A DNA stretch of 64,000 nt from Escherichia coli (GTDB lineage Bacteria > Pseudomonadota > Gammaproteobacteria > Enterobacterales > Enterobacteriaceae), in assembly GCF_001677475.2 (NCBI RefSeq), contig NZ_CP015229.1. One strand, written 5' to 3'. The notes under the pieces are model-generated. The model made no database searches. It had not been told where the DNA came from and worked only from the letters and a program-made list of their open reading frames with translations. The position numbers and the translations under genes are program-made. This document shows, piece by piece, positions 3,515 to 53,505 of this stretch (the stretch's first letter is position 1; the number at the start of each line of letters is the position of its first letter).

Positions 3515-6217
3515 TTATTGCTTAGTAAACGGCGCGAAGATTTCGCTAAATGCGTACTTCGGTGCCTGTTCTTTAGTCAGGCCGTGGAATTCCGGAGACA
3601 GGTTAGTGCCGCCTGGCAGGTCGCGCGCGATTGACCAGATACCAACCATACCGAGATTACGCTTCTGCGCATCCTGCATGACCAGACGAGCATCAGAGAG
3701 ATAGAACACCTCGCCCTGAACGTCGTTCACGCCAACCATCGGCGTGGTACCCATCATAGCGTCAATTTCTGCATCGCTCTTGTTGGGATGGAGGCCTTTC
3801 AATTGTGAATGCAGGTTGGCAATCGCAGACGTTGCACACTTACCGTGAATGTTCTGGCCTTCGGTATTTGCAGACTGACAAATCGCGTTACCGTAGTCCA
3901 TTGTCATCACGTTCACACCCGCCAGCTCAACACCTTTCGCTTTGGCATCGCTCAGGACATTCATCCCTTCCGGCGTCAGGCCAGTCGGCAGAATTGGCAA
4001 GGTGTACCAGATAGCAATATCTTTGCCTTCTGACTTCCATTTATCCTGCACTTTCTTCACAGCAAGGTTACGACGTTCAATAGATGCCTGATCCGCAACC
4101 CAGGTGCCTTCGATATCGAAGTCCAGGACTCTGAGGTTCAGGTTATCAACGATGTCATAATAATGCTGCATCAGATCGTCTACGTTCTTACAGGAAGCAG
4201 CCAGCGGAGCGTTGTTAGCACCACCGATAGACAGCATCACATCGCCGCCAGCCTCACGCAGGGCTTTGATTTTGCTGTACTGAGCGTAATTTTGCATACC
4301 ATAAGCGGTACCCCATGTCGGCAGACAGGTGTTCGCATCTTTACTCACCACAAACGCCAGCGTGAAGTGGTTGACGTTATGATTCTTAGCCAGCGCAGCC
4401 AGATCCGGGATCGTATTCAGCGTAAAGTCAACATACGGTGCATAAACGTGTTTCGGCCACGCTTTCTTCGGCGTACCTACACGTTCTTTGGTTCCGGTCC
4501 AGTCAACAAAAACACGCCACGGGTTGCTGTCAGAAGGAGAAACTTTCTGCACTTTACTCTGAGAAATGTAGTTCGCACCGTTAAAGCGAATCAGCGTATC
4601 GCTGGTATAAAGCGTTTCTGGATTAAACTGCGGCGCATTATTCAGCTCTTCGTTGCTATAGCTCTGAGCCTTACCTAACGGCTTCCACGGGCGGCTATTG
4701 CTACCGGTGGCGTTTTGGTTCGCAACCAGAGCAGGGTTGTCACTTTGCGTCCAGAACAGCGCTTCATAAGCCTGCCCATCAACAACAACGCGATCACCTT
4801 TCACGTACACAGTGGATGCGGACCATGCTTTCGCCGGTTCGTATTTCTTCCACGGGTTATCACCGCCTGGGACAAAGCCCCATGCGTCTTGATCGACAGA
4901 AGTTTTATAATGTGCATCGTTATAATCTACGATGCTGTCCGCGCTGTACGCTTTGCTGGCCTGGAAACCATCCGCAACAATGACGCCGCCGTTATCAATT
5001 TCACAGGTAGTCGGGTTACCGTACTGACTCAATTCCGCAGCGGTAGCTGTACGCACGAGACGCCATGGGTTATTGGAGTTTTCAGCGCTGGTACCCCGTG
5101 GGCAATCTTTAGACCCAACCCACCAGGCGTTCTTGTAAACATTACCATTGAAAATAACATGGTAAATTTCGCTACCTTCCTGGCCGCTCCACGCTTGCAA
5201 TGAGTAATCGTTACCGCTATCCGCTGGTGTTGATGGCTCGTTGTTATCCGGAGTTGGGGTAACCGGAGTTTCTGGTGTTTCCGGAGTTGGATCAACCGGA
5301 GTCACAGCACCGCCATTATTATCCGGCTTAACGGAACAGGAGCCAGGGTTACCATACTGACTGATTTCTGTTGCCGTTGCCGTGCGAACATAACGCCATG
5401 GGTTACTGGCATCGTTTTCTTTCGCATCGCCTGGGCAATTTGCCGCGCCTACCCACCAGGCGTTCTTATAAATGCCGCCGTTGTAGATAACGTACCATGT
5501 AGAAGAACCTTCCTGACCTTTCCAGGCTACGACAGCATAGTTGTCGTTTGACTTATCAGCTGGGGCTGGCTGAACATCAGGAGCCGGTTTAACGTCCGGT
5601 GCCGGTTTCACATCCGGTGCAGGCTGTGGTGCTGAAGTACAGGACTGTGGATTACTGGTTTGCGTGATTTCCGTTGCCGTAGCGGCACGAACATAACGCC
5701 ATGGGTTGCTGGCATCATTGCCTTTCGCATCACCCGGGCAGTTAGAAGAGGCTACCCACCAGGCATTTTTATATACCGCACCATTAAAGACGACATACCA
5801 GGTCTGACCGCCCTGCTGTTTATTCCAGGCAACTACAGAAGAATTAGACGGAACAGTGCCCTGTGCTGGTGTAGCCGAACCGCCATTAGCCGGCGTATTG
5901 GATGCAGGCGTATTTGAATTTGAAGAAGATGAGCTGCCGCTCTTTTCGCAGGAAAGTGTATTGCCATACTGACTAATTTCAGCAGCTGTCGCGGTACGCT
6001 TTAAACGCCACGGGTTAGTTGCATCATTTGCTTTCGCTTTTCCCGGGCAATTTGTAGAAGAAACCCACCAGGCATTTTCATAAATTTTGCCATCGAAAAT
6101 AACCTGATATTTATTACCACCTTGTTGGTTATTCCATGCTTCCATTGCCAATGCTGGCAGAGCGGAACACACCAGCCCCATACCAATCATAGATTTAGTA
6201 AATATATTTAATTTCAT
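3515..6217 (-). CDS. chiA: Periplasmic endochitinase with N-terminal signal peptide and tandem carbohydrate-binding modules
   Basis: 900-aa ORF; signal peptide; four ~65-aa tandem repeats (AWxxQQGG...NAWWV...NPWR...C) plus further chitin-binding-like modules; C-terminal catalytic domain with DFDIEG motif. Confidence 0.9.
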   Translation of the reverse strand: MKLNIFTKSMIGMGLVCSALPALAMEAWNNQQGGNKYQVIFDGKIYENAWWVSSTNCPGKAKANDATNPWRLKRTATAAEISQYGNTLSCEKSGSSSSSNSNTPASNTPANGGSATPAQGTVPSNSSVVAWNKQQGGQTWYVVFNGAVYKNAWWVASSNCPGDAKGNDASNPWRYVRAATATEITQTSNPQSCTSAPQPAPDVKPAPDVKPAPDVQPAPADKSNDNYAVVAWKGQEGSSTWYVIYNGGIYKNAWWVGAANCPGDAKENDASNPWRYVRTATATEISQYGNPGSCSVKPDNNGGAVTPVDPTPETPETPVTPTPDNNEPSTPADSGNDYSLQAWSGQEGSEIYHVIFNGNVYKNAWWVGSKDCPRGTSAENSNNPWRLVRTATAAELSQYGNPTTCEIDNGGVIVADGFQASKAYSADSIVDYNDAHYKTSVDQDAWGFVPGGDNPWKKYEPAKAWSASTVYVKGDRVVVDGQAYEALFWTQSDNPALVANQNATGSNSRPWKPLGKAQSYSNEELNNAPQFNPETLYTSDTLIRFNGANYISQSKVQKVSPSDSNPWRVFVDWTGTKERVGTPKKAWPKHVYAPYVDFTLNTIPDLAALAKNHNVNHFTLAFVVSKDANTCLPTWGTAYGMQNYAQYSKIKALREAGGDVMLSIGGANNAPLAASCKNVDDLMQHYYDIVDNLNLRVLDFDIEGTWVADQASIERRNLAVKKVQDKWKSEGKDIAIWYTLPILPTGLTPEGMNVLSDAKAKGVELAGVNVMTMDYGNAICQSANTEGQNIHGKCATSAIANLHSQLKGLHPNKSDAEIDAMMGTTPMVGVNDVQGEVFYLSDARLVMQDAQKRNLGMVGIWSIARDLPGGTNLSPEFHGLTKEQAPKYAFSEIFAPFTKQ

Positions 6218-40424: not shown

Positions 40425-41156
40425 ATGTCAGCTACGGACCGCTACTCTCATCAACTCCTCTACGCTACCGTCCGCCAGCGGCTGCTGGATGATATCGCGC
40501 AGGGGGTTTACCAGGCCGGGCAACAGATCCCTACCGAAAACGAGCTTTGTACGCAATATAACGTCAGCCGCATTACCATTCGCAAAGCCATCAGCGACTT
40601 AGTGGCAGACGGCGTACTGATCCGCTGGCAGGGCAAAGGCACCTTTGTACAAAGCCAGAAAGTTGAAAACGCCCTGCTTACTGTCAGTGGTTTTACCGAT
40701 TTTGGCGTCTCACAAGGCAAGGCGACGAAAGAGAAAGTGATCGAGCAGGAACGGGTCAGCGCCGCGCCGTTTTGCGAAAAGCTGAACATCCCCGGAAACA
40801 GCGAAGTGTTCCATCTCTGCCGGGTGATGTATCTCGATAAAGAGCCGCTGTTTATTGATAGTTCATGGATCCCGCTGTCGCGTTATCCTGACTTTGATGA
40901 GATTTACGCCGAAGGAAGCTCCACCTATCAGTTATTTCAGGAGCGTTTTGACACGCGAGTGGTCAGCGATAAAAAGACCATCGATATTTTTGCCGCCACC
41001 CGCCCGCAGGCAAAATGGCTGAAATGCGAACTGGGCGAACCGCTGTTTCGCATCAGCAAAATCGCCTTTGATCAGAATGACAAACCGGTGCACGTCTCCG
41101 AACTCTTCTGCCGCGCCAATCGCATCACCTTAACGATTGATAATAAAAGACATTAA
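40425..41156 (+). CDS. frlR: GntR-family (HTH + UTRA) transcriptional regulator of frl operon
   Basis: Probable start MSATDRYSHQLLYATVRQRLLDDI at 40425 (243 aa). Confidence 0.88.
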   Translation: MSATDRYSHQLLYATVRQRLLDDIAQGVYQAGQQIPTENELCTQYNVSRITIRKAISDLVADGVLIRWQGKGTFVQSQKVENALLTVSGFTDFGVSQGKATKEKVIEQERVSAAPFCEKLNIPGNSEVFHLCRVMYLDKEPLFIDSSWIPLSRYPDFDEIYAEGSSTYQLFQERFDTRVVSDKKTIDIFAATRPQAKWLKCELGEPLFRISKIAFDQNDKPVHVSELFCRANRITLTIDNKRH

Positions 41157-41159
41157 CCG

Positions 41160-41212
41160 TAGGCCGGATAAGATGCGCCAGCATCGCATCCGGCGATGCT
41201 GGCGCGTTGAGG
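41160..41212. repeat. REP (repetitive extragenic palindromic) element
   Basis: gccggataagatgcgccagcatcgcatccggc-type imperfect palindrome between convergent frlR and yhfS. Confidence 0.7.
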
Positions 41213-41263
41213 GGACCGTCCGGCGCTGAATTTAGCTTGATTGCCGAACGGGGCTATCCAGCA

Positions 41264-42349
41264 TTAAATACTGGCAATACTCTCACGCAAAATCCGCAGC
41301 ACCGTCTCTTCACCGCTGCGATTTGGGTTAATACGAATCGCGTAATGTTCGAGTTGCGGATTCGCCTGGCGAAACGTTCCGGAAAGGCGATAAAAAAGCG
41401 GCGGGATCTCATATTTCGACTCTGCACCAACCGGGTAAGGCAAGGCACCGCGCTTTTGCGCCTCTTCCAGTACTCTGGCGGCAATCGGCTGATGAAACTC
41501 CACAATCAACACCTTCGACTGTGCATTGGCAATCACCGCGCTTTTCACGTCCGCCACTGCGCCACCGTTAAGTAAAGCCAGCAACCGTTCAGATACCCCC
41601 GCCTGCACCGCGTGCATCACTGGCGCAAACACCAGCCCACGCAAGACTTCCAACGCCTGCGCGCCCTGAATCTGGCTGCCGCCGGAGTAAAGCGTGGCGC
41701 GAATACGGTTGATAACATCAGCATCGCCTACCACCGCGCCAACACCCTCTGGCCCAAATAGCTTGAAGCAGGAAAAAGTCGAGACATTCGCCCCGCATTC
41801 GCAGCCGATTCGCGCTACCTTCATCACCGCATAGTTGTCATCGGTTAAGGCTGGAACACTTGCCGCGCGCAACGTTGCCAGCACATCTGCCAGCACATAG
41901 CTATCCTGCGGCTGCTGGCGCGTATGCTGCACCAGCGCGGCATCTGGTTGTTGCTCGTCGACAACCTGCTTCAGTGCCGACAGGTCATTGAAATCAGCAG
42001 TGATAAGCGTCAGCCCCATCTGCTCAATAATGACCTGAGTCGTCGGGTAAACCGGCGCGTCATGCACCAGAAGACGCTGCCCCGGTTTGAGCAAAACCGC
42101 CAACGCCGCACGAATCGCTCCAGTACCCGCGCCCTGCACCAGCGCCGCAGCCTGTGCGTGAAATGCATCAGCCAGCACCTGTTCCACACGCTGGGTAATG
42201 CGCGGTTGATTCAGTCCCGGCGTTAAGCCTAAATCACCGCCAGCAAGAAACTCGCTGCCGGGAAAATGGCGGCAAATCGTGTCCACCAGCGCAAACTGCT
42301 TTTGCTGCGCCTCAATAAGCGTCAGGCTTTGCAGAGGAAACGTCTTCAT
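41264..42349 (-). CDS. yhfS: Predicted PLP-dependent enzyme YhfS (fold-type I-like)
   Basis: 361-aa ORF; candidate PLP-lysine in STFSCFKLFGPEG; last gene of yhf cluster. Confidence 0.8.
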   Translation of the reverse strand: MKTFPLQSLTLIEAQQKQFALVDTICRHFPGSEFLAGGDLGLTPGLNQPRITQRVEQVLADAFHAQAAALVQGAGTGAIRAALAVLLKPGQRLLVHDAPVYPTTQVIIEQMGLTLITADFNDLSALKQVVDEQQPDAALVQHTRQQPQDSYVLADVLATLRAASVPALTDDNYAVMKVARIGCECGANVSTFSCFKLFGPEGVGAVVGDADVINRIRATLYSGGSQIQGAQALEVLRGLVFAPVMHAVQAGVSERLLALLNGGAVADVKSAVIANAQSKVLIVEFHQPIAARVLEEAQKRGALPYPVGAESKYEIPPLFYRLSGTFRQANPQLEHYAIRINPNRSGEETVLRILRESIASI

Positions 42350-42360
42350 AGGTGCCTTCC

Positions 42361-43665
42361 TTAAGCTGGAACAAACAGACCAAGCCAGTAAAGAACATTC
42401 AGCAGAATACCGGTGATCATTACTGCCACGACCGGTGCCGCCATTTTCTGTACCGGACGGCCCAGGGATTCGTTGAAGAAGTAAATGGCAACCGCGATAG
42501 AGAATCCGGTATAATCCGCCATTTTAATTGCTGCGAAAATCGAACCGACCAGCAGCGCCACTTCCATCAGCATATTCATGGCGTTACGGATGTTATCCGA
42601 CGCATTACGCACCGACGGATAGCGCCCCAGCCATTTGCCAATCGAACGAAGCAGTAAGACTTCCGCCGAAATAACCACTGCGCCTAATACCGCTGCAACC
42701 ATCGGATTCGGCGAGAGATAGCCCACCGCATAAACAAAGGTAAAGCCCGCAACTGCATACACGCCAGTGGCTAACGCCGTGGTGGCAATCAACGGCACAA
42801 ACCCCAGTCCGCGCATAAATTCTGCCAGAGCCGCCTGATTAATCAGCGTTTGCGATTGTTCCGGCGTTACGCCTGCGGAATATGCTTTCTCCAGTGTGAA
42901 GATCGAAACTTCGCTACCAGCAAAAATCTTCATGCTGGCAACGGCGGCAATCAATGCTCCCACGATGGCGATATACGGTAAGTTTTTGATAATCCGCGAC
43001 GTGCGTTCTTCAAACACCGAAAGCCCGCTGGCATCAATGTCATTTTCATCACGATGACGCAAGTCGTGAGTTATCGCGATCCCCAGCAGCATCACCATGC
43101 CAATAAAGATTTCGATGGATTCAGGGTTAAGATGTGGGAAATAGCGCACGACGACCACACGGGTCATCAGTACCACCACGGCGGCGATCAGACTTTGCTT
43201 CCAGCCAAACTGGTAGAAAATCGCCACCAGCGGGAACAGTGCAAAAGCTGAAACCACCGGCGAGCTTAATTCCCCCAGGCTACCTAATACATCCACCGGT
43301 AGCGCGGTCAGCAGCTGGTTTACCGGCAACAGGCAAGTAAGGATCTACACGCCCCAGATAGCGCCAAGACCAAACGCCATCAGGCTGTTTATCGCCAGTA
43401 CGCCGAGGATATCGGTAGGAAGAAAGAGTAACCATGCGTTGAGCAGCCCGGTTTTCAGGGTAAACGAGATCCCCACCGAGGCCACAAAACCAATGCTCAG
43501 ACCAAAAGCGATACTCCCCGCCTCGCGACGGTTCATATAGCCTTCAATCAGTTGCGGCAGGATCGGGCGGATACCGTCATGAAAAACGGCCGCCGAGCGA
43601 TGCGCCAGAAGCGATGTCATACCCGTCAGGCACGCCACCACGATAATCTGAATATACAGATCCAT
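42361..43665 (-). pseudogene. yhfT: yhfT membrane transporter-like gene interrupted by in-frame TAG at 43345-43347 (106-aa N-terminal ORF + 322-aa remainder in same frame)
   Basis: ORFs 43345-43665 and 42361-43329 share one reading frame, separated only by TAG plus 5 sense codons; 106+1+5+322 = 434 codons, the length I recall for intact YhfT. Confidence 0.75.
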
Positions 43666-43676
43666 AGTCGTGCCTT

Positions 43677-44030
43677 TTATTTCAGATGGTTAATCAGCAT
43701 CGGAATCGCGTGTTCGACATGCTCAACGGAAAGCCCAAACGCCACTTTCCCTTCGGCGATCATTTTGGCGATATGTTCGTCTTTCGCTTTAATGCCTGGT
43801 TTGGCAATGGTGCAACTTTTGTTATAGCCAATCACCGCGATGGCAATCGACAATGCCGCGCCCGCACCGGTATTACACGCGCCGATGTAGTAATCCAGTT
43901 GCCCGGATTTCACTTTCATTGCCGCTTCCATGTCGTTGTGAATGAAAACTTCAAAACGGCCAGGAGCCGTCGCTTCAATGGTTTTTTTAATCTGCTCACG
44001 CTGTAAGCCTGCAACACCAATCTTTTTCAT
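43677..44030 (-). CDS. yhfU: Uncharacterised protein YhfU (DUF family)
   Basis: ORF 43677-44069; probable start MKKIGVAGLQ at 44030 (117 aa). Confidence 0.8.
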   Translation of the reverse strand: MKKIGVAGLQREQIKKTIEATAPGRFEVFIHNDMEAAMKVKSGQLDYYIGACNTGAGAALSIAIAVIGYNKSCTIAKPGIKAKDEHIAKMIAEGKVAFGLSVEHVEHAIPMLINHLK

Positions 44031-44040
44031 GAGTCTGTCC

Positions 44041-44919
44041 TTATTGGAAAAATTGAGAGGGAGTTTCACGTAACATCACATCCACATCGGCCTGACTGAA
44101 TCCTGACTGGCGCAATTGCGGAATAAAGGTGGTCAATAAATAGTCATAGCCATAACCACCGTTGGCTTTTAAATGGGAGCGGCGCGTAATATCCATCGAC
44201 AGCATGACGCGGTTCAGCAACCCACGGTCGCGTAGCGCATGAAGCATCGCAATACGCATTTCGTCCGGGTAGTAACTGTTCTTACCAATGGTGTCGAACT
44301 GCACATACGCGCCGAGATCGATCATCTTCAAAATGTTGTCGAGGTTGTCTTTCAGATCGCAGTGACCAACGGTGACGCGCGAAAGATCAACTCCGTGGGC
44401 TTGCAGTAGCGCCAGTTGTTCCAGACCCATGGTGCTAAAAGAGGTATGCGTGGAGATCGGACGTCCGGTCTGGTTATGTGCCAGCGCGGCGGCAATAAAC
44501 ACCTTCTCTTCCAGCGGCGTAATCTTCCCTTCGCTGGAGCCGATCTCCGCGATGATCCCGGCTTTCAGCTCCGTGCCATCGATACCCTGTTCAATTTCAT
44601 CGACCATCTCCTGCGCCAGTTCCTGCACGCTGCGGGTCGCCACATGTTGCGGGAAAAACGCGTCCTGGTAATAACCGGTACAGGCCACCACGTTGATCCC
44701 GGTTTCGCGCATTACATCGAGCATAAATTGCGCATTGCGCCCCATATAACGGTTGGTCATCTCAATCACATTACGCACGCCCTGGGCCATCAGGTCGTTC
44801 ATCTCCTGGCAAATGAACGCATACTGATCAAGGCGGCAGTCCACGTTGTTTTTAAAGCCTGAGAGATCAATATGCAGATGCTCATGGGCGAGGGTGTAAC
44901 CCGTCGGATCAAAACTCAT
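44041..44919 (-). CDS. php: Phosphotriesterase-homology protein (amidohydrolase superfamily, binuclear metal centre)
   Basis: Probable start [20 protein letters not shown] (292 aa); HxH metal-ligand motif. Confidence 0.9.
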
Positions 44920-46142
44920 AGGGTGTCTCCTGCAAACCGGAGGGAGGAAAGAAAAGAGCAACCATTTTGTGGCGGTGGCGCACGGAAAAATTCACACACG
45001 GTAGCCCCCACATCAGAAAGCGTGGTGCGCACACCGAGTTGCGTGTGGACCAGCCCTTGCTGATAAACCAGCACCGGCACCATTTCGCGGGTATGGTGGC
45101 TGTGACCGATTGTCGGATCGTTACCATGATCCGCCATCACGACCAGGCAATCATCTGGCTGCATCACCTCAACAAGCCGGGCAAGGTTTCGGTCAACGAC
45201 CTGCAAACGTTCGGCATAACGTGCGACGTCTTCTGCGTGACCAGCGAGGTCGGTTTCCTGGATATTGGTGCAAATAAACGCCGTCGGATGCGTGTTAAAT
45301 TCGTCGAGGGTGATATCCATAATCCGCTGGCTATCCACCAGGTTTTGCCAGCTCACGCCATAAGGATTGCTGGCAATATCCGCCACTTTCCCCACCAGCA
45401 CGGTTGGTACGCCCACTTCATACAGTTTTTGTGGCACCTGCACTTTATCATCGACACCGTAGCCCATATGCACGACCTGGAAGCCGTTGTCATAAGCGCC
45501 TGAACGCGGCGCATTGATACCAATAAAGCGCCCTTCTTTGCTTTCTGCGGCATCGAGAATGCGTTGACTGTCGGGTAACAGGCCGCCAAATGTAATGACC
45601 CGACCGACCTGTACCTGCTCACGCACAATACGACCAATTTTGATTGCGTCGTCAAAAGAGATCACAGAGAGATTGGCGGTGATGTTATAGACCTGGCCTA
45701 AATCCGCCTCGAGATTATCGCCAATCGCAACCGCCTGATTGACCCACAGAAATTGCAGATCATCGCCACGGCGCTCCACCTGCCAGCCTGCGGAAACTAA
45801 TGCCTGCTCAACACGGTCAATCACATCGCGAAAGGGCATCCGCAGCGGCGGTAACGGGCGCGTGCCTAAAATTTCCTGATGCCCCATAAAGGTATCGCCA
45901 CCTTCATGTTGCAGCTCTGCCACGCCCCAGGTTGCGGAGTCTGACGGCTGCATATCTCCAGGCGCATAACCTAATGCGTTGATTAGCCCCATTTTCTCCA
46001 GCATTGGTAGCTGCAAATGCGGCAACTGGCTCAGGATGTGACCACAGGTATTTGCCCCGGCATCCTGCGGACGCACCAACGTGACATCTTTCATTGCCCC
46101 TACGCCAAAGCTATCAATCACTAACACCACAAATCGCGCCAT
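44916..46142 (-). CDS. yhfW: Phosphopentomutase-like protein (alkaline-phosphatase superfamily)
   Basis: 408-aa [22 protein letters not shown] resembling DeoB N-terminus; stop overlaps php start. Confidence 0.85.
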
Positions 46143-47305
46143 TACGCCTCCAGAGGGTTGCCGAGGCTGTCATAACGACCCACAATCTCTGCCGCGCCAC
46201 GCTGAATACCAGACACCAGCACCACATCGCTACGGGTGACAAAAATCTGCGTGCGAAAACAGAGCACCACTGCACTGCTTACCGGATGCTCACCTGCCAG
46301 CGGCAGGGTGTAGTCGATACCGCTGTCATCCACGGCTTTGAGATATGTTTCAGTCACGCTTTGATTCTCTGGCGTAAACACCAACGCATGTTGCGCATGA
46401 CCACGACGGTAATAACCGCCGCCGTAGCAGTAGCTGTCACCACGGAAGTGATGGGAAATTTCGCTCAGCCAAAGCATCGCGATACGTTCAGGCTGGTCTC
46501 CCTGCTGGTTTACCGGAATCGTCCCCGTCAGTGCATGACCGGGTTCGGCATGAGTCACACCGTATTCCGCCAGTAATGGCAGCGAAGTGCAGCTGGTCGC
46601 TGAAGGCGCGTTCAGTTGCTCAATCGCAATACCAGATTTCGCCAGTTGATCCCGTACCTGTATCAGCGTGTGAAGATTCGGTGTCGGCAAAACTTTCCCG
46701 GCAGCCTCATCCCAAAGCAGGCAAGGGAAATGGGTTAGTCCGGCTAAATGCAGCCCCGGCAGTTTCTTAATTTCAGCAACCACCTCGTGCAGCGAATGCT
46801 GTACAAAACCGCTCTCCTGCCCCGGATAAAGAAAATCATCGTCGCTATAAACTTTGAGCAGCACAGACTGGATTCGCCCGGCCTTCACCGCCGCCGCAGA
46901 AACTTCCCGCGCTTTGTCGAGAGTAAACACGGTGATGACGTCGGTGCCCTGTTCAACGGCGTCAGCAACCTGATGACAAGGGATTTGTACCAGATGCCCC
47001 TGATGCGCCACCGGCAAACCAGCGCGGCGCATGACTCGCGCCTCTTTGTAATCCACCGCCACAATGCCGCTGTAGCCCAATGCCAGCAGTTTTTCCGCCA
47101 GCCACGGATTACGACCGAATTGTTTGGTCATCAGATACAGTTCAATGCCGTAAAGCCGTGCCGTCTCAATCAGCCGCTTACCGTTTTCCAGTATCTGATC
47201 CACGTCGATCACCCAGCTGTCCGGGGCGATCTTGCCCTGCTGCCACAGGCTTAGTGCGGCGGAAATCAGCGCCGGGTTCTGGCGTTTCAATGCTTCTACA
47301 AACAT
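46142..47305 (-). CDS. yhfX: Alanine-racemase-fold (fold-type III PLP) protein YhfX
   Basis: 387-aa ORF; overlaps yhfW start. Confidence 0.8.
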
Positions 47306-47388
47306 CTTGTTGCCTCGTTTCTGTTCCTTGAGTTAAATATTCATTTTTTTGAATATTTAGGTTGTGCGACGTGGATTTGTCGGGAGCT

Positions 47389-47751
47389 TCAAACCTCTTC
47401 GTTAGCAGCCATCCATAATCCATAAAGGTTGGCCAGCAAATAGCCTTCTTCACACGGGTTAACTTCCAATGCGAATTCCTTCAACAACACCTGATGCAAT
47501 TGCACAACGGCTTGCCAGTGGCTGGATTGCGCCAGCTCTGCCAGCAACTCGTTATCCAGTGGCTCAATTTCTTCACCACGGCGACTGCGCATAAGTGCAC
47601 TCGCCATATGTGTCATCGCCATCGTTCCTTGCTCACTGCGCACCGGCAGATGGCACTCTTTTTCCAGTACGTTGACGACCTGCATCATGCCTTTGCAGAT
47701 GTCCTTATCGATGACCCCTGCATCGCAAAGCAGGTTGAGTCTGGTTTCCAT
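47389..47751 (-). CDS. yhfY: Small uncharacterised protein YhfY
   Basis: ORF 47389-47871; probable start METRLNLLCDAGVIDKDI at 47751 (120 aa). Confidence 0.7.
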   Translation of the reverse strand: METRLNLLCDAGVIDKDICKGMMQVVNVLEKECHLPVRSEQGTMAMTHMASALMRSRRGEEIEPLDNELLAELAQSSHWQAVVQLHQVLLKEFALEVNPCEEGYLLANLYGLWMAANEEV

Positions 47752-47767
47752 TTCAGATGCCTTTGGT

Positions 47768-48673
47768 TTAATAACTGGGTTCCTGTTCCCCACTGACCAC
47801 TCGTTGTTGATGGGCAAGCAGGGCCTGTTTATCAACAACTGCACGCAGCAATTGTTGCATTGGGTAATCATCGACTCGCGTCAGGACCACGGCTTCGGTG
47901 GCCTGTAAAAATCGCGGATCGTCTGTGAGCGGCGTCGCTTCTAATCCCAGCATGGTCAGTTCGTTTTCCGCCACCACGTTCCAGATCACCGCATCAACAT
48001 CGCCTTTAACAATGCGTTGTAAACTCTCGTGATAAGAGAGATCGACACGTTCCACATCACTATCGCCAAAAAAGACATCGGTCATGATTTTCTGATCCGC
48101 CGAACGGTTATCCAGCCCCACGCGCTTCACGTTTGCGGACTCGCCTTTACGGCATATCAACTGGTGTTCGCCAACGTAGGTGTGCGGCCCCAATTCCAGC
48201 GCGAGGCATAACCCTTTTTGCGTGAGATAACTTTCCGCCGCCAGTCGGGAAACCACCGCCATGTCATACACGCCGTTAAGTAAACACTCCACGCGAATAT
48301 CCGCGCCGCGCATATGCGCATAGTAAAAAGGAATGCCATCAAACTGGGCTTTCAATCCGCTCGCTAAACCTTCGTACAAGCGGGTATAGGGCAAAGGCAT
48401 CGCACATACCACGTTGTTGATATCCACATGGCTCAGCAATGCTTTGTTATCCATCTCGACCAGATAACTGCCATTGCGCCCACGGCGTTCAATCCGTATC
48501 GCTCCGCTTGATTCCAGTGTTTTCAACGCTGCCTGCGTCAGGCCAACGGATGAACGGCATTCAGTTGCCAGCTCATCTATGGTTTTCAACCTATTACCGC
48601 ATTTTTCACCCAACAAATAACGGGCCAGCGTCGTGATAACGACGCCTTCTTTTTTGATAAACGTTCGACGCAT
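47768..48673 (-). CDS. yhfZ: Putative transcriptional regulator YhfZ (N-terminal HTH-like, C-terminal ligand-binding-like)
   Basis: 301-aa ORF, first gene of the yhfZ-yhfS co-directional cluster. Confidence 0.8.
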   Translation of the reverse strand: MRRTFIKKEGVVITTLARYLLGEKCGNRLKTIDELATECRSSVGLTQAALKTLESSGAIRIERRGRNGSYLVEMDNKALLSHVDINNVVCAMPLPYTRLYEGLASGLKAQFDGIPFYYAHMRGADIRVECLLNGVYDMAVVSRLAAESYLTQKGLCLALELGPHTYVGEHQLICRKGESANVKRVGLDNRSADQKIMTDVFFGDSDVERVDLSYHESLQRIVKGDVDAVIWNVVAENELTMLGLEATPLTDDPRFLQATEAVVLTRVDDYPMQQLLRAVVDKQALLAHQQRVVSGEQEPSY

Positions 48674-48791
48674 AATATATTTTCAATAAAATGAATGTTT
48701 ATATCTTCATTAAAATGAAGATAAGTGGCAACTGTGAGATGTGGAAACGGCGAGGCGCTTCACATTTTTTCGGATTATTGCAAATGAGGAT

Positions 48792-48818
48792 AAAAAAACC
48801 GGGTTTCCCCGGTTTTTG
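48792..48818 (-). terminator. Rho-independent terminator downstream of trpS
   Basis: accggg-tttc-cccggt hairpin with T7 run on minus strand (A7 on plus strand). Confidence 0.8.
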
Positions 48819-48832
48819 GCATTAATGTTAAA

Positions 48833-49837
48833 TTACGGCTTCGCCACAAAACCAATCGCTTCGTACACCGCTTTTAGCGTACGGGAAGCGTGTGCGCTGG
48901 CTTTTTCCGCGCCATCTTTCATCACCTGTTGCAGGAAGGCTTCGTCATTGCGGAAACGGTGATAGCGTTCCTGCAATTCAGTCAGCATACCGGAAACGGC
49001 ATCAGCCACTTCGCCTTTCAGATGACCATACATCTTGCCTTCGAACTGTTTTTCCAGTTCCGGGATGCTCTGGCCCGTTACCGCAGAAAGGATATCCAGC
49101 AGGTTGGAAACGCCCGCTTTGTTCTGCACATCGTAGCGAACTACCGGCGGCTCGTCGGAGTCAGTGACCGCGCGTTTGATTTTCTTCACTACCGATTTCG
49201 GATCTTCCAGCAGGCCGATAACGTTATTGCGGTTATCGTCAGACTTGGACATCTTCTTGGTCGGCTCCAGCAGCGACATTACGCGCGCGCCAGATTTCGG
49301 AATAAACGGCTCCGGCACCTTAAAGATCTCACCATACAGCGCGTTGAAACGCTGAGCGATATCGCGGCTCAGTTCCAGGTGCTGTTTCTGGTCTTCACCC
49401 ACAGGTACCAGATTAGTTTGATACAGCAGGATGTCCGCAGCCATCAGCACCGGATAGTCAAACAGACCAGCGTTGATGTTCTCGGCATAACGCGCAGATT
49501 TATCTTTAAACTGCGTCATGCGGCTCAGTTCGCCGAAGTAGGTATAGCAGTTCAGTGCCCAGCCTAACTGCGCATGTTCCGGTACGTGGGACTGAACAAA
49601 AATGGTGCTTTTCTCAGGATCGATACCACAAGCCAGATACAAGGCCAGCGTATCCAGCGTCGCTTTACGCAGCTTCTGTGCATCCTGGCGCACGGTGATC
49701 GCGTGTTGGTCAACGATACAGTAAATGCAATGGTAGTCATCCTGCATGTTTACCCACTGACGCAGCGCACCCATGTAGTTACCAATGGTCAATTCACCTG
49801 AGGGCTGTGCGCCACTAAAAACGATGGGCTTAGTCAT
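48833..49837 (-). CDS. trpS: Tryptophan--tRNA ligase
   Basis: 334-aa class-I aa[30 protein letters not shown] with KMSKS motif. Confidence 0.97.
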
Positions 49838-50588
49838 TTTTCGATTCCTGATTTTCGCTATGCGGAAGCCCTAATGCGGGCAGAAGGTCATTTATAGACT
49901 GATAAATTACATCAGGCTGGCTGAGATCGATAGCCTCGCCGTAGTTATATCCGTAGGTTAAGCCAACGGATGGGCAACCTGCCGCTTTTGCCGCCTGAAT
50001 ATCATTGCGTGAGTCGCCGACAAACAGCATCTGTTGTGGGGCAATTCCCATCCGCTCAGCCACCAGTAACAGCGGGTCCGGATGCGGTTTTTTGTTTTGC
50101 ACATCATCACCGCCGATAACCACACTGAAGTATTTGGCGATATCTAAGGCTTCGAGCAGCGGCGCGACGAACGGCGTCGGTTTGTTGGTGACCAGGCCTA
50201 GCGGCAGGCCTTTAGCCTGCAACGCGCCCAACGTATCGGCAACGTGTGGGAACAAAAACGTCCCCTCTTCGGCAACCTCGCCATAGTAGCGATCGAACAG
50301 TTTACGCAGAATACGTATCTGTTCTTCTGCCGGAATGTCGTCATCAACGGGCGGTTTACCCATTGTTTTACGCTGAGTCGCACGTTCCTGACGCGCCCAG
50401 GTCAATGCGCGCTCCATCAGAACATCTGCGCCGTTACCAATCCAGGTAATAACGCGTTCTTCACCTGCGACGGGCAACTCCAGCGCATACAGCGCCATAT
50501 CTACCGCAGCAGCAAGACCAGGAGCACTGTCGACCAGCGTACCATCAAGATCAAAAGCGACGCCGCGAATATCTTCAAACTTATTCAT
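49830..50588 (-). CDS. gph: Phosphoglycolate phosphatase (HAD family)
   Basis: 252-aa ORF with HAD motif [10 protein letters not shown]. Confidence 0.93.
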
Positions 50589-51258
50589 GACTTACCTTTG
50601 CCAGTTCACTGCGCATTTCATCAATGACTTTTTTGTAGTCTGGCTGGTCGAAGATTGCCGAACCGGCGACGAACATATCCGCGCCCGCCGCAGCGATTTC
50701 GCCAATGTTGTTCACCTTCACACCACCGTCCACTTCCAGACGAATGTCAAAGCCAGACTCGTCGATACGACGACGTACTTCGCGCAGTTTATCCAGTGTT
50801 TGAGGAATGAAAGACTGACCGCCGAAACCAGGATTGACGGACATCAGCAGGATCACATCCAGCTTATCCATCACGTAATCCAGATAGCTCAGCGGTGTCG
50901 CCGGGTTAAATACCAGACCCGCTTTACAGCCATTTTCTTTAATCAGTTGCAGCGTGCGGTCAACATGCTCGGAGGCTTCTGGATGAAAGGTAATGATGCT
51001 GGCACCAGCGGCAGCGAAATCAGGCACAATGCGATCGACGGGTTTCACCATCAGATGTACGTCGATAGGGGCGGTAATGCCGTAGTTACGCAAGGATTTC
51101 AGCACCATTGGCCCAATCGTCAGATTGGGAACATAGTGGTTATCCATGACGTCAAAATGCACGACATCAGCGCCAGCTGCCAGGGCTTTTGCGGTATCTT
51201 CACCCAGGCGGGCAAAATCAGCCGACAGAATTGAGGGGGCAATCAAATACTGTTTCAT
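50581..51258 (-). CDS. rpe: Ribulose-phosphate 3-epimerase
   Basis: 225-aa [25 protein letters not shown]. Confidence 0.96.
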
Positions 51259-51275
51259 CCGCTTCTCCTTGAGAA

Positions 51276-52112
51276 TTATTTTTTCGCGGGTGAAACGACT
51301 CCTGGTTTGTACAAAGCCAGCAGTTCGTCCACCTTTTTACGTGTGCCGCCGTTGCTGCTTATACTGCGTCGAACTTTGACGACATGCAATTTTGCGCGCT
51401 GATACCACTCACGCGTTAACATCGTATCGTGATTGGAGATCAGCACAGGAATATGGCGATCAACCAGACCTTCGGCGATCTCCGCCAGATGCGCTTGTTG
51501 TTCAAGCGTAAAACTGTTTGTGTGATACGCCGTAAAGTTGGCGGTCGCAGACAGCGGTGCATAAGGCGGATCGCAATAGACGACGGATGCATCATCTGCG
51601 CGCGCCATGCTATCGGCGTAAGACTCACAATAGAAAAAGGCATTCTGCGCTTTTTCAGCGAAGTGATACAACTCTGCTTCCGGGAAATAGGGTTTTTTGT
51701 AGCGGCCAAACGGCACGTTAAACTCACCGCGCAGATTGTAACGACACAGGCCGTTGTAACCGTAGCGGTTCAAATATAAAAACAGTACCGCCCGACGGAA
51801 CGGATCCTGGCTTTTGTTGAACTCTTCGCGGAACTGATAGTAAACCTCGGCGCAATTTGTTTCGGGAACAAACAGCTCGCGTGCGGCCTGTACGTACTCA
51901 TCAGTACGCATTTTCACAATGTTATAGAGACTGATCAGGTCGCTATTGATATCGGCAAGGATATAACGAGAAAAGTCGGTGTTGAGAAACACCGACCCGG
52001 CACCTACAAAAGGCTCAACCAGACATTCGCCCTTGGGCAAATGCCGTTTAATATCATCAAGCAGGGGATACTTGCCCCCTGCCCACTTCAAAAAAGCGCG
52101 ATTTTTCTTCAT
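51276..52112 (-). CDS. dam: DNA adenine methyltransferase (GATC)
   Basis: 278-aa [20 protein letters not shown] with DPPY catalytic motif. Confidence 0.97.
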
Positions 52113-52218
52113 GCTGACTAACTAATTACACCTTCTCCGGCTGTGGAGAAAGCTCCGACAGCATCCAGCGCTTCAGGCAGCTCCCGCAACGATAACCCAT
52201 TGCGGGAGATAACCTTGA

Positions 52219-53505
52219 TTACTTCAGATCGGCCTGTACCTGACGCAGCGGTTTCGCCCACGGGTTTTTGGCCTGGACATCTGCTGGCAATGTAGATACC
52301 GCTTTTTTCGCCTCTTCTTTCGAAGCGTACACGCCAGAAACCAGGACATACCACGGCTGACCATTACGCGTCGTTTCATAGACAACGTAGTTTTTCAGAT
52401 TCTCTTTCTTCGCCCAACCGTTCAGGTTGTCGTAGTTAGAGGAACTGCTCAGCTGCAGAGTGTAATGGCTGGACGGTGCCGATTTCAACGAACCAACATT
52501 ACCTGCGGTCTTCGCCCCAGCAGCGGGTGTTGCTGTGGTTTGCGCCGGGGATGCCGTCTGTACTGGAGCCGTAGTCGCCGTCTCTTTTGGTGCTGGCGTA
52601 GAAGTCGCAGCCGGTGCCTTCGTGCTCGCCACAGGGGCAGCTGGTTCAGTACGCTTCGGCGTCTGTGCTACCGGCTTCGGCTCCGTTTTCACGGTTGCTT
52701 GCGGTTTTTTCGGTTCAATCACCGCCTGCTGACGAGCTGGGCGCGTAGTGGCCGGACGTTCAGCGGTTTGCGTTTTCGCCGTGTCACGCGATGCATTGCC
52801 ATTGCGAACAGGCGCGACAGTCGCGGGTTCAGTCGGCAACGTGGAATTGACCGCCACATTGTTCAGCTGTTGCTGATTTTGTGGCTGGGTCAGCGCATTG
52901 TTCAGGTCACCCTGCACTTCAACACGTTGTTGACCATCCGTTGCCGCCGGGGTTTGCCCTTGAGTCGGCGTAGAAGAGATCGGTGGCAGAGAAACATCCT
53001 GCTGAGTATTTTCCGCAGACGTGGTTCCCGGCGCTGGCTGCACGCCATTCGCCTGATCGGTCGCATTGCCAGCAAGATCAATACTCTTCTCGCCAGACGC
53101 GGTTTGATCGCTGGAAGAGGTCGAGGGGGCTTTTAGCGCAGAACCGATACCGATGATCAACAGCAGTAGAACCAGAATGCCGACGCCCATCATCATATAC
53201 TGACGAGAAGCGGGTTTACTGGCTGCTTTTTTGCGCTTACGCGGACGACGCTCTACGCGCTCTTCATCCACGGTTTCATCTTCGGATTCGTCAATTTCTT
53301 CTTCGATTTCCGGTTCCTCATTGCGCTCTTTTTGCGCACGAGTCGGACGGCGATCGTCAGTGTCATCAAGTTCAATATCATCAAAATTGATCTGCGGTTC
53401 GCCACGTTCAGTACGCTCAGAACGTTCAGAAGATTGACGAGAACGACCAGTACGACGATCGCTGGGATCGGGTTTCAGCTCGTCTTCTGGTTTGAATTCA
53501 TCCAT
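52219..53505 (-). CDS. damX: Cell-division protein DamX (low-complexity linker, C-terminal SPOR domain)
   Basis: 428-aa ORF with acidic N-terminus, TM segment, Pro/Thr/Ala/Gln-rich linker and C-terminal SPOR-like domain. Confidence 0.93.

Follow-up and report, generated by a model that had tools for sequence, protein, structure and literature searches.

The yhfZ-yhfS gene cluster of Escherichia coli as a conserved orphan cassette with a possible link to the phosphotransferase system and a nonsense allele of yhfT

A block of eight genes, yhfZ, yhfY, yhfX, yhfW, php, yhfU, yhfT and yhfS, lies within a 64,000-nucleotide stretch of Escherichia coli DNA (RefSeq assembly GCF_001677475.2, contig NZ_CP015229.1), which was analysed as a whole and is hereafter called the window. 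We tentatively read this yhf cluster, with a little less than even confidence, as a horizontally spread, substrate-inducible catabolic cassette that would be linked to the phosphotransferase system (PTS), repressed by YhfZ and directed at a phosphorylated, amine-bearing sugar or polyol ester, and that would be inactive in the window via an in-frame TAG codon in yhfT. Seven of the genes (yhfZ, yhfY, yhfX, yhfW, php, yhfU and yhfT) are the conserved core of the cassette, and yhfS is accessory.

The cluster itself is already known through its genes, its Pfam families and structures for four of its proteins, and it is an orphan in function. An initial annotation of the window had called it the most plausible undescribed system there, which is an overstatement because the genes, Pfam families and crystal structures have long been known. 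The same annotation held that no substrate had been assigned, and we likewise found no substrate or pathway in full-text searches of about 8 million papers, PDB titles or the 2026 RefSeq and NCBIfam names; the PDB titles read “uncharacterized” or “hypothetical”, and the RefSeq and NCBIfam names were still generic in 2026. New here are the seven-gene core, the recognition of YhfY as a PTS regulation domain (PRD) protein, the fold of YhfU, the want of a solved structural relative for YhfT, a set of palindromes and the extra genes in relatives.

Results

Relatives of the cluster were sought by a DUF2620 motif scan of 100,044 species genomes and were found in 225 species. Among them are Enterobacterales (Escherichia, Citrobacter, Cedecea, Buttiauxella, Trabulsiella and Yersinia), Bacillota (Paenibacillus, Alicyclobacillus, Clostridium and Enterococcus), Vibrio, Fusobacteriales, Actinomycetota (Olsenella), the spirochaete Entomospira and Coprothermobacter. 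Open reading frames (ORFs) were called in 90 loci and searched with the eight yhf proteins, and gene occurrence was counted in 37 divergent loci (Table 1). The usual order in these is Z-Y-U-T-Php-(amidase-like)-(S)-X-W, and the Z-Y pair is reshuffled relative to the enzyme genes in other phyla. The amidase-signature-like gene (about 350 amino acids; motifs GVKD, TGSSSG and GTDGGGS) was found in 15 loci, all of which also have yhfS. All catalytic residues of the cassette are conserved across phyla, with at least 95% conservation for the metal ligands, the lysines that bind pyridoxal 5'-phosphate (PLP), the Thr/Ser nucleophile, the PRD histidine and the YhfU cysteine.

Genes for general PTS proteins stand in or beside some of the clusters. 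Enzyme I was found in five loci, three of which have an HPr gene directly before it. HPr and Enzyme I directly follow yhfW in Paenibacillus and Alicyclobacillus, Enzyme I alone follows yhfW in another Alicyclobacillus and in a Clostridiales genome, and an HPr gene adjoins yhfZ in Olsenella. The HPr motifs are GIHARPA or GLHARPA (locus L070, 15170-17194; L072, from 15106; L075, from 16470; L079, 8268-8531), and Enzyme I comes next in L070, L072 and L075. Other additions are NagB (4 loci), a Cof-type HAD phosphatase (6 loci) and a Lac/Cel-family PTS IIC protein (5 loci). No kinase family recurs among the 37 divergent loci.

Two groups of hosts have particular versions of the locus. All Yersinia versions (L045-L054) are without yhfS and most are also without yhfW, with Z, Y, X, php, U and T kept, and they represent a natural reduced cassette. 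Vibrio, too, is without yhfS. Vibrio halioticoli, V. ezurae and Vibrio sp. ES.051 (L057, 3504-7579; L058; L061) carry a full Lac/Cel-family PTS (IIB, IIC, IIA) directly beside yhfZ. A DUF7916 protein (PF25509, 2e-102) is also encoded beside yhfZ in these three loci and after yhfW in Alicyclobacillus (L075), and a porin gene additionally lies beside yhfZ in L057 and L058.

The enzymes were assigned with Pfam, NCBIfam and the nearest structures, which bear out the folds that the initial annotation had given to YhfX, YhfS, YhfW and Php. YhfX matches Ala_racemase_N (1.1e-21) and YhfX-like_C (3.5e-36), has been solved as PDB 4KBX (“uncharacterized protein YhfX”) and retains Lys61 in at least 95% of sequences, as a fold-type III PLP enzyme should; it does not belong to a specific racemase family (Orr, 32 against a cut-off of 480). 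YhfS, solved as PDB 4J8L (“uncharacterized protein YhfS”), matches YhfS-like_C (1.3e-44), Aminotran_1_2 (7e-9) and Cys_Met_Meta_PP (1.3e-6), and conserves the Lys196 and Asp170 of a fold-type I PLP enzyme. It reaches no equivalog, the best being methionine gamma-lyase at 39 against a cut-off of 666.

YhfW scores 728 bits against a cut-off of 254 for PRK12383, a model specific to the YhfW group and the source of its “phosphopentomutase” label, and fails the DeoB equivalogs (TIGR01696, 142 against 341; PRK05362, 178.5 against 256). Its nearest solved structure is a phosphopentomutase (1.7e-30). Asp10, Asp83, Asp298, His302, Asp338, His339 and His350 are conserved, and position 84, the phosphoryl acceptor, is Thr in 21 and Ser in 14 of 35 sequences. 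With its metal ligands and Thr/Ser acceptor, YhfW is a predicted phosphomutase of the alkaline-phosphatase superfamily.

Php belongs to the phosphotriesterase family (PRK09875, 648 bits against a cut-off of 486) and has been solved as PDB 1BF6 and 4LEF. Across 36 sequences, conservation is at least 95% for its His12, His14, Glu125, His158, His186 and Asp243, all of which the window protein has. Equivalog cut-offs are missed both for OPH (100.6 against 500) and for phospho-furanose lactonase (98.6 against 630). A role in organophosphate detoxification was ruled out on two grounds: the score falls well short of the OPH cut-off, and the surrounding genes are of a catabolic kind. Php was described by Kim et al. 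in 2010 as a protein of unknown function whose overexpression rescues a pdxB deletion via a route to 2-oxo-3-hydroxy-4-phosphobutanoate (PMC3010111).

The initial annotation had left two small proteins of the cluster without a function, and both can now be placed, YhfY as a PRD domain and YhfU by its RpiB/LacAB fold. YhfY matches Pfam PRD (PF00874) at 3.9e-4 over model positions 2-84 of 90, and homologues of it are already annotated with PF00874. His48, Ala52 and Arg55 each reach 95% conservation or more across 36 sequences. From the profile match and the conserved His48, YhfY appears to be a stand-alone PRD protein, and phosphorylation of this residue is predicted. Its only NCBIfam match is to TIGR03582, and at 28.7 bits YhfY falls short of the cut-off of 69.35 for membership of that family.

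YhfU has an invariant Cys-x-Ser/Thr at the place of the RpiB catalytic residues, and thus shares with RpiB/LacAB both the fold and the catalytic Cys with Thr/Ser in the C-x-T-G loop. Its sequence does not place it in the family, as the best PDB sequence E-values are 0.14-0.8. It has 117 amino acids against 148-212 for its PDB matches, lacks about 30-40 C-terminal residues of RpiB and has no NCBIfam match. YhfU was also considered as a member of the PTS IIB family, which was ruled out because the fold ranking and the position of the cysteine both differ; no IIB-type cysteine follows strand 1.

YhfT has no solved structural relative. Among its weak structural echoes are both IIC proteins and elevator carriers of the DASS/INDY type, and no recognisable IIA, IIB or IIC family is encoded in the cluster. 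The YhfT family is rare, as 1.84 billion proteins contain 305 clusters of it at the 50% identity level, and neither YhfU nor YhfT matches the TIGR03577-TIGR03583 families. YhfU and YhfT are also found as an isolated pair in the absence of the other cluster genes. Apparent YhfU-YhfT and Php-YhfT fusions returned by homology searches are probably artefacts of assembly or of frameshifts, given that the 11-bp gaps do not keep the reading frame. A protein of Clostridium citroniae (AFDB G5HJH7, 768 amino acids) joins a YhfT-like membrane domain to the amidase-like domain that 15 other loci encode as a gene of its own, and may be either a Rosetta-stone fusion or an annotation read-through.

YhfZ matches the NCBIfam model YhfZ_full (374 bits against a cut-off of 260) and the Pfam families HTH_41 (1.4e-18) and YhfZ_C (1.6e-84), and its C-terminal domain has been solved as PDB 2OZZ (“hypothetical protein”). 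PF14503 has been counted among solute-binding-protein profiles (PMC9602780), and YhfZ_C is predicted to be a sensor domain of the solute-binding-protein type.

The palindrome TTCA-W6-TGAA (W, A or T) has three matches in the window against 0.02 expected, and all lie within the yhf cluster. Two are less than 50 bp upstream of yhfZ and one is inside the 83-bp gap between yhfY and yhfX. The pair upstream of yhfZ keeps its positions at about -23 and -47 in Escherichia, Citrobacter, Cedecea, Buttiauxella, Trabulsiella and others, and the copy upstream of yhfX is conserved in Escherichia, Citrobacter, Trabulsiella, Pluralibacter and Vibrio mediterranei. In 20-kb loci of other Enterobacterales, these palindromes are essentially the sole matches and their positions are kept. 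The yhfZ-upstream pair overlaps the sole promoter-like hexamers detected on the minus strand. An operon table (PMC4448311) lists php, yhfS, yhfT, yhfU, yhfW and yhfX as one operon that does not include yhfY and yhfZ.

This pattern argues for two regulated promoter regions, for yhfZY and for yhfXW-php-yhfUTS, which YhfZ would control, with the palindromes as candidate operators. Probably, the genes do not form a single yhfZ-headed operon. Promoters and terminators were not enriched over shuffled controls in a scan that also found no consensus internal promoter, and no terminator-like site on the minus strand was distinct from shuffled controls. Searching the complete window against Rfam, with gathering thresholds, returned 0 matches, and hence no known riboswitch, RAT-like element or small RNA that would explain the regulation.

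The initial annotation had listed eight genes and missed that yhfT is split in the window. Codon 107 is an in-frame TAG in place of TTG (43344-43346, minus strand), leaving ORFs of 106 and 322 amino acids. The closest complete E. coli genomes have TTG (Leu) at this codon, the sole mismatch over the 111 bases compared, and the nonsense allele is absent among 5,426 complete E. coli genomes. The 106- and 322-amino-acid gene pair is present on at least 24 public draft contigs, one of which (GCA_018683435.1) matches the window without a difference for 6,321 bp. Sequencing error and recoding were ruled out, because the allele recurs in at least 24 independent public contigs and the codon is an ordinary Leu elsewhere. 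The TAG is thus a lineage allele and can serve as a lineage marker.

Outside the stop, yhfT differs from that of E. coli 1190 by 53 synonymous and 3 non-synonymous changes, which indicates that the knockout is recent. The lost N-terminal part holds residues that are near-invariant across the YhfT family (D30, R33, D85 and G88), so that loss of YhfT function is to be expected. Probably, the yhf cassette is inactive in the window's strain owing to the truncated yhfT. In GCA_035825615.1 (L092, 5402-6321), which has the same yhfT nonsense allele, yhfL and cysG directly follow yhfS; this means that the whole frlABCDR operon has been deleted there, whereas it is kept in the window.

The features of the locus are given in Table 1. 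The initial annotation was right in its eight co-directional ORFs, whose boundaries and overlaps hold. Overlaps amount to 4 bp for php/yhfW and 1 bp for yhfW/yhfX, and the remaining gaps are 11, 11, 10, 83 and 16 bp. From frlR to trpS the genes run S-T-U-php-W-X-Y-Z, as in the E. coli yhf cluster, and RefSeq gives the same eight genes with the same spacing for the orthologous region of E. coli 1190, which is flanked by a convergent frlR on one side and trpS-gph-rpe-dam on the other. The ratio of non-synonymous to synonymous substitution rates (dN/dS) against E. coli 1190 is 0.01-0.14 in every gene, including yhfT outside the stop. Low dN/dS, NCBIfam scores far above cut-offs and PDB structures all indicate that the yhf ORFs are real and did not arise by chance.

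Table 1. Features of the yhf locus in the window and occurrence of the eight genes in divergent relatives
Feature	Position	Strand	Description	Divergent loci
yhfZ	47768..48673	-	transcription regulator; HTH_41 + YhfZ_C	30/37
yhfY	47389..47751	-	predicted stand-alone PRD protein, 120 amino acids	36/37 (PRD/YhfY)
yhfX	46142..47305	-	fold-type III PLP enzyme	35/37
yhfW	44916..46142	-	phosphopentomutase-like metalloenzyme, alkaline-phosphatase superfamily	35/37
php	44041..44919	-	phosphotriesterase-homology protein, binuclear-metal amidohydrolase superfamily	36/37
yhfU (DUF2620)	43677..44030	-	RpiB/LacAB-fold protein, 117 amino acids; Cys52 invariant, position 54 Ser or Thr	37/37
yhfT	42361..43665	-	polytopic membrane protein, PF10797; pseudogene in the window	36/37
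yhfS	41264..42349	-	fold-type I PLP enzyme; accessory cassette member	22/37
Candidate operator palindromes (n = 2), TTCA-W6-TGAA	48682-48695, 48706-48719		just upstream of the yhfZ start	
Third TTCA-W6-TGAA palindrome	47340..47353		yhfY-yhfX gap, 35-48 nt upstream of the yhfX start; candidate internal-promoter operator	
trpS intrinsic terminator	48793..48822	-	GC-rich hairpin CCGGGGAAACCCGG then T-run, directly after the trpS stop; upstream boundary	
Palindromic element like a repetitive extragenic palindrome (REP), GCCGGATGCG...CGCATCTTATCCGGCCTAC	41157..41200		between the convergent yhfS and frlR stops; downstream boundary; seen in the sequence	

Megablast of an 8-kb query against the 5,426 complete E. 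coli genomes gave a best identity of 96.3% at 100% coverage. The region is present, over at least 80% of the query length, in 5,059-5,062 of these genomes (about 93%), and about 7% are without it. Strain divergence differs along the window, with a best match of 96.3% for the yhf cluster (41000-49000) versus 99.0% for the trpS-dam flank (48833-53000), and 934 genomes match the cluster at 90-95% identity. Most of the differences are synonymous, a pattern suggestive of old cluster alleles that recombine.

At the upstream boundary, the trpS terminator would isolate the yhfZ promoter region from trpS read-through. Bacterial interspersed mosaic elements (BIMEs) have been mentioned near genes of the yhfZ region (PMC2965389). 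On the downstream side, frlR ends at 41156 and is convergent with yhfS, as the initial annotation had said in placing the cluster directly beside the frl fructoselysine operon. This adjacency is specific to Escherichia, and in many other Enterobacteriaceae trpS-gph, and not frl, flanks the cluster. A functional link between yhf and frl was ruled out, since the adjacency is not conserved outside Escherichia.

Discussion

The gene set supports the uptake-and-breakdown character that had been ascribed to the cluster in the initial annotation. In the pathway that we tentatively propose, YhfZ would repress both promoters via the palindromes until an effector is bound, and YhfY would link this control to the PTS, with HPr phosphorylating the conserved His48. 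The compound would be imported by YhfT with YhfU as an obligate RpiB-fold partner, and it would either arrive phosphorylated or be phosphorylated from phosphoenolpyruvate (PEP) during uptake, two options that we rate as roughly equal. Php would then hydrolyse a bond near the phosphate, either an ester or a lactone, YhfW would move the phosphate within the molecule, and YhfX, together with YhfS (and the amidase) where present, would carry out PLP chemistry on a primary amine, be it racemisation, elimination or transamination. The products would enter central metabolism, with NagB or a HAD phosphatase added in some relatives.

Each part of this proposal has its own grounds. The PTS link is suggested by YhfY as a PRD protein and by the HPr and Enzyme I genes in or beside some clusters. 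A phosphorylated substrate is suggested by YhfW as a phosphomutase homologue, by the Php route to 2-oxo-3-hydroxy-4-phosphobutanoate and by the lack of a recurrent kinase; since every version of the cassette is without a recurrent kinase, the phosphate would come from the substrate itself or from PEP via the PTS. An amine-bearing substrate is suggested by the two PLP enzymes, NagB and the amidase-signature-like gene.

Several points weigh against the proposed pathway. The HPr and Enzyme I, NagB, HAD phosphatase and Lac/Cel PTS genes each occur in 4-6 of the 37 divergent loci and could be chance neighbours. The substrate links of the yhf proteins and the binding of YhfZ to the palindromes are predictions from sequence. 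A consensus scan of the yhfY-yhfX gap found no sigma-70-like promoter hexamers, so that the case for an internal promoter consists of the operator site and one operon table. Php, in work said to be by Nemmara et al. in Biochemistry in 2018, is reportedly a weak esterase on phosphorylated glyceryl acetates with no lactonase activity.

How the genes are transcribed and how the substrate enters the cell bear on two other explanations. The initial annotation had proposed a single eight-gene operon read from a promoter ahead of yhfZ and degrading a phosphorylated or lactam/lactone-type amino compound, possibly in connection with frl. The tight spacing (4-bp and 1-bp overlaps, gaps of 10-16 bp), the lack of a standout minus-strand terminator and the enzyme mix as it had described it agree with this, and read-through from yhfZY into yhfX is possible. 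Evidence nevertheless leans against one transcription unit, as the only large gap holds a conserved copy of the yhfZ-promoter palindrome, even though promoter hexamers are missing there; the published operon table has a separate six-gene operon; and the Z-Y order is reshuffled in other phyla. With the frl adjacency also confined to Escherichia and Php reportedly devoid of lactonase activity, this explanation is quite unlikely. It is somewhat more plausible, and still on the unlikely side, that YhfT is an ion-coupled elevator-type permease for a ready-made phosphoester, YhfU a true sugar-phosphate isomerase, and YhfY with HPr concerned only with catabolite control. The catalytic Cys-x-Ser/Thr in the RpiB fold of YhfU fits such secondary transport, as do the DASS/INDY carriers among the structural echoes of YhfT, the want of a IIA gene and of a IIB-type cysteine after strand 1, and the HAD phosphatase in six loci, which would suit an imported phosphoester. 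The pairing of YhfU and YhfT apart from the other cluster genes would be odd for an unrelated isomerase, however, and a role beyond regulation is suggested by those clusters that contain dedicated HPr and Enzyme I genes; moreover, YhfU is short at its C-terminus and has no RpiB sequence match. At the other extreme, YhfT, YhfU and YhfY could form an unrecognised PEP-dependent PTS-type uptake system in which YhfU takes the place of Enzyme IIB, YhfY relays the HPr phosphate and YhfT acts as a IIC-like translocator delivering a phosphorylated amino-ester to Php, YhfW and YhfX. We think this improbable; if true, it would be a new PTS family, found in at least 225 species.

Two further explanations concern the substrate and the state of the cluster in Escherichia. 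The cassette might salvage aminoacyl (e.g., D-alanyl) glycerol-phosphate esters from teichoic acids or aminoacyl-phosphatidylglycerol, with Php removing the aminoacyl ester, YhfX racemising, YhfS transaminating and YhfW converting the glycerol phosphate isomer. An alanine-racemase-like YhfX, a phosphomutase and a scheme that needs no kinase would agree with it, the hosts are gut and soil heterotrophs that meet Gram-positive wall debris, and Php reportedly hydrolyses acyl esters of glycerol-3-phosphate. The fit is purely one of parts, no glycerophosphodiesterase recurs, and the NagB, amidase-like and Lac/Cel PTS neighbours rather indicate amino sugars or glycosides, which makes this salvage route very unlikely, even though aminoacyl-glycerol-phosphate is one concrete candidate for a substrate. 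Least probable of all is decay, with the cluster in Escherichia a functionless relic whose cryptic genes are being lost. The yhfT nonsense codon in this lineage, the E. coli genomes without the region, the loss of yhfW and yhfS in Yersinia species and the lack of a published phenotype would all be expected of a relic. Against this stand the low dN/dS of every gene, the intact catalytic residues, the operators conserved across genera and the absence of the nonsense allele from all complete genomes sampled.

The yhf cluster is one of the larger remaining E. coli gene blocks without a function, and it also occurs in gut and soil bacteria of several phyla. If it were assigned, the best-studied bacterium would gain a nutrient or salvage pathway, and five Pfam families that have only names (YhfT, DUF2620, YhfX-like_C, YhfS-like_C and YhfZ_C) would gain a function. 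The value of the present analysis lies in making an old open question more testable, through the core genes, the candidate operator, the PTS link, the fold of YhfU and the lack of a dedicated kinase.

Comparison with known systems

The window cluster corresponds to the annotated K-12-type cluster of E. coli in its eight genes, their order and spacing and the location between frlR and trpS, at 96.3% DNA identity and with few protein differences. It differs by the TAG at codon 107 of yhfT and is otherwise an ordinary allele. Names that cover the K-12-type cluster are those of RefSeq/PGAP, the five Pfam families listed above and PDB 1BF6, 4LEF, 4J8L, 4KBX and 2OZZ.

A similar assortment of genes is found in the EF_0829/AHA_3910 neighbourhood (TIGR03577-TIGR03583), which has no assigned function and combines a stand-alone PRD protein with a PLP enzyme, an enzyme of the amidohydrolase superfamily, and uncharacterised proteins that are small or membrane-bound. 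The yhf enzymes are from different families, however; YhfY is below the TIGR03582 cut-off, and YhfU and YhfT match none of the models. Php is homologous to the phospho-sugar lactonases (cog1735, NF045706; 3.6e-28), has the same binuclear metal site, and the lactonase substrates carry a phosphate. It scores 98.6 bits against the cut-off of 630 for NF045706 “phospho-furanose lactonase”, which covers proteins such as Lmo2620/Bh0225.

With canonical PTS permeases and their PRD regulators (BglG/LicT, MtlR, LevR), the yhf cluster shares a PRD with a conserved His, HPr and Enzyme I in some versions, and a dedicated permease. Unlike in those systems, the PRD is a separate 120-amino-acid protein, the regulator combines HTH_41 with a solute-binding-protein-like domain, and recognisable IIA, IIB and IIC families are missing. 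Compared with RpiB/LacAB isomerases of about 150 amino acids, YhfU is shorter at 117, has no significant sequence match and is always coupled to the membrane protein YhfT.

The dga system of Salmonella (D-glucosaminate) and the frl system of E. coli (fructoselysine) both take up their substrate to yield a phosphorylated amino-sugar derivative, on which a dedicated deamination or deglycation enzyme then acts. No protein families are shared with yhf except for the general PLP fold in DgaE, and frl, a physical neighbour in the window, is not adjacent outside Escherichia. What the dga and frl systems do have in common with the proposed yhf pathway is this logic.

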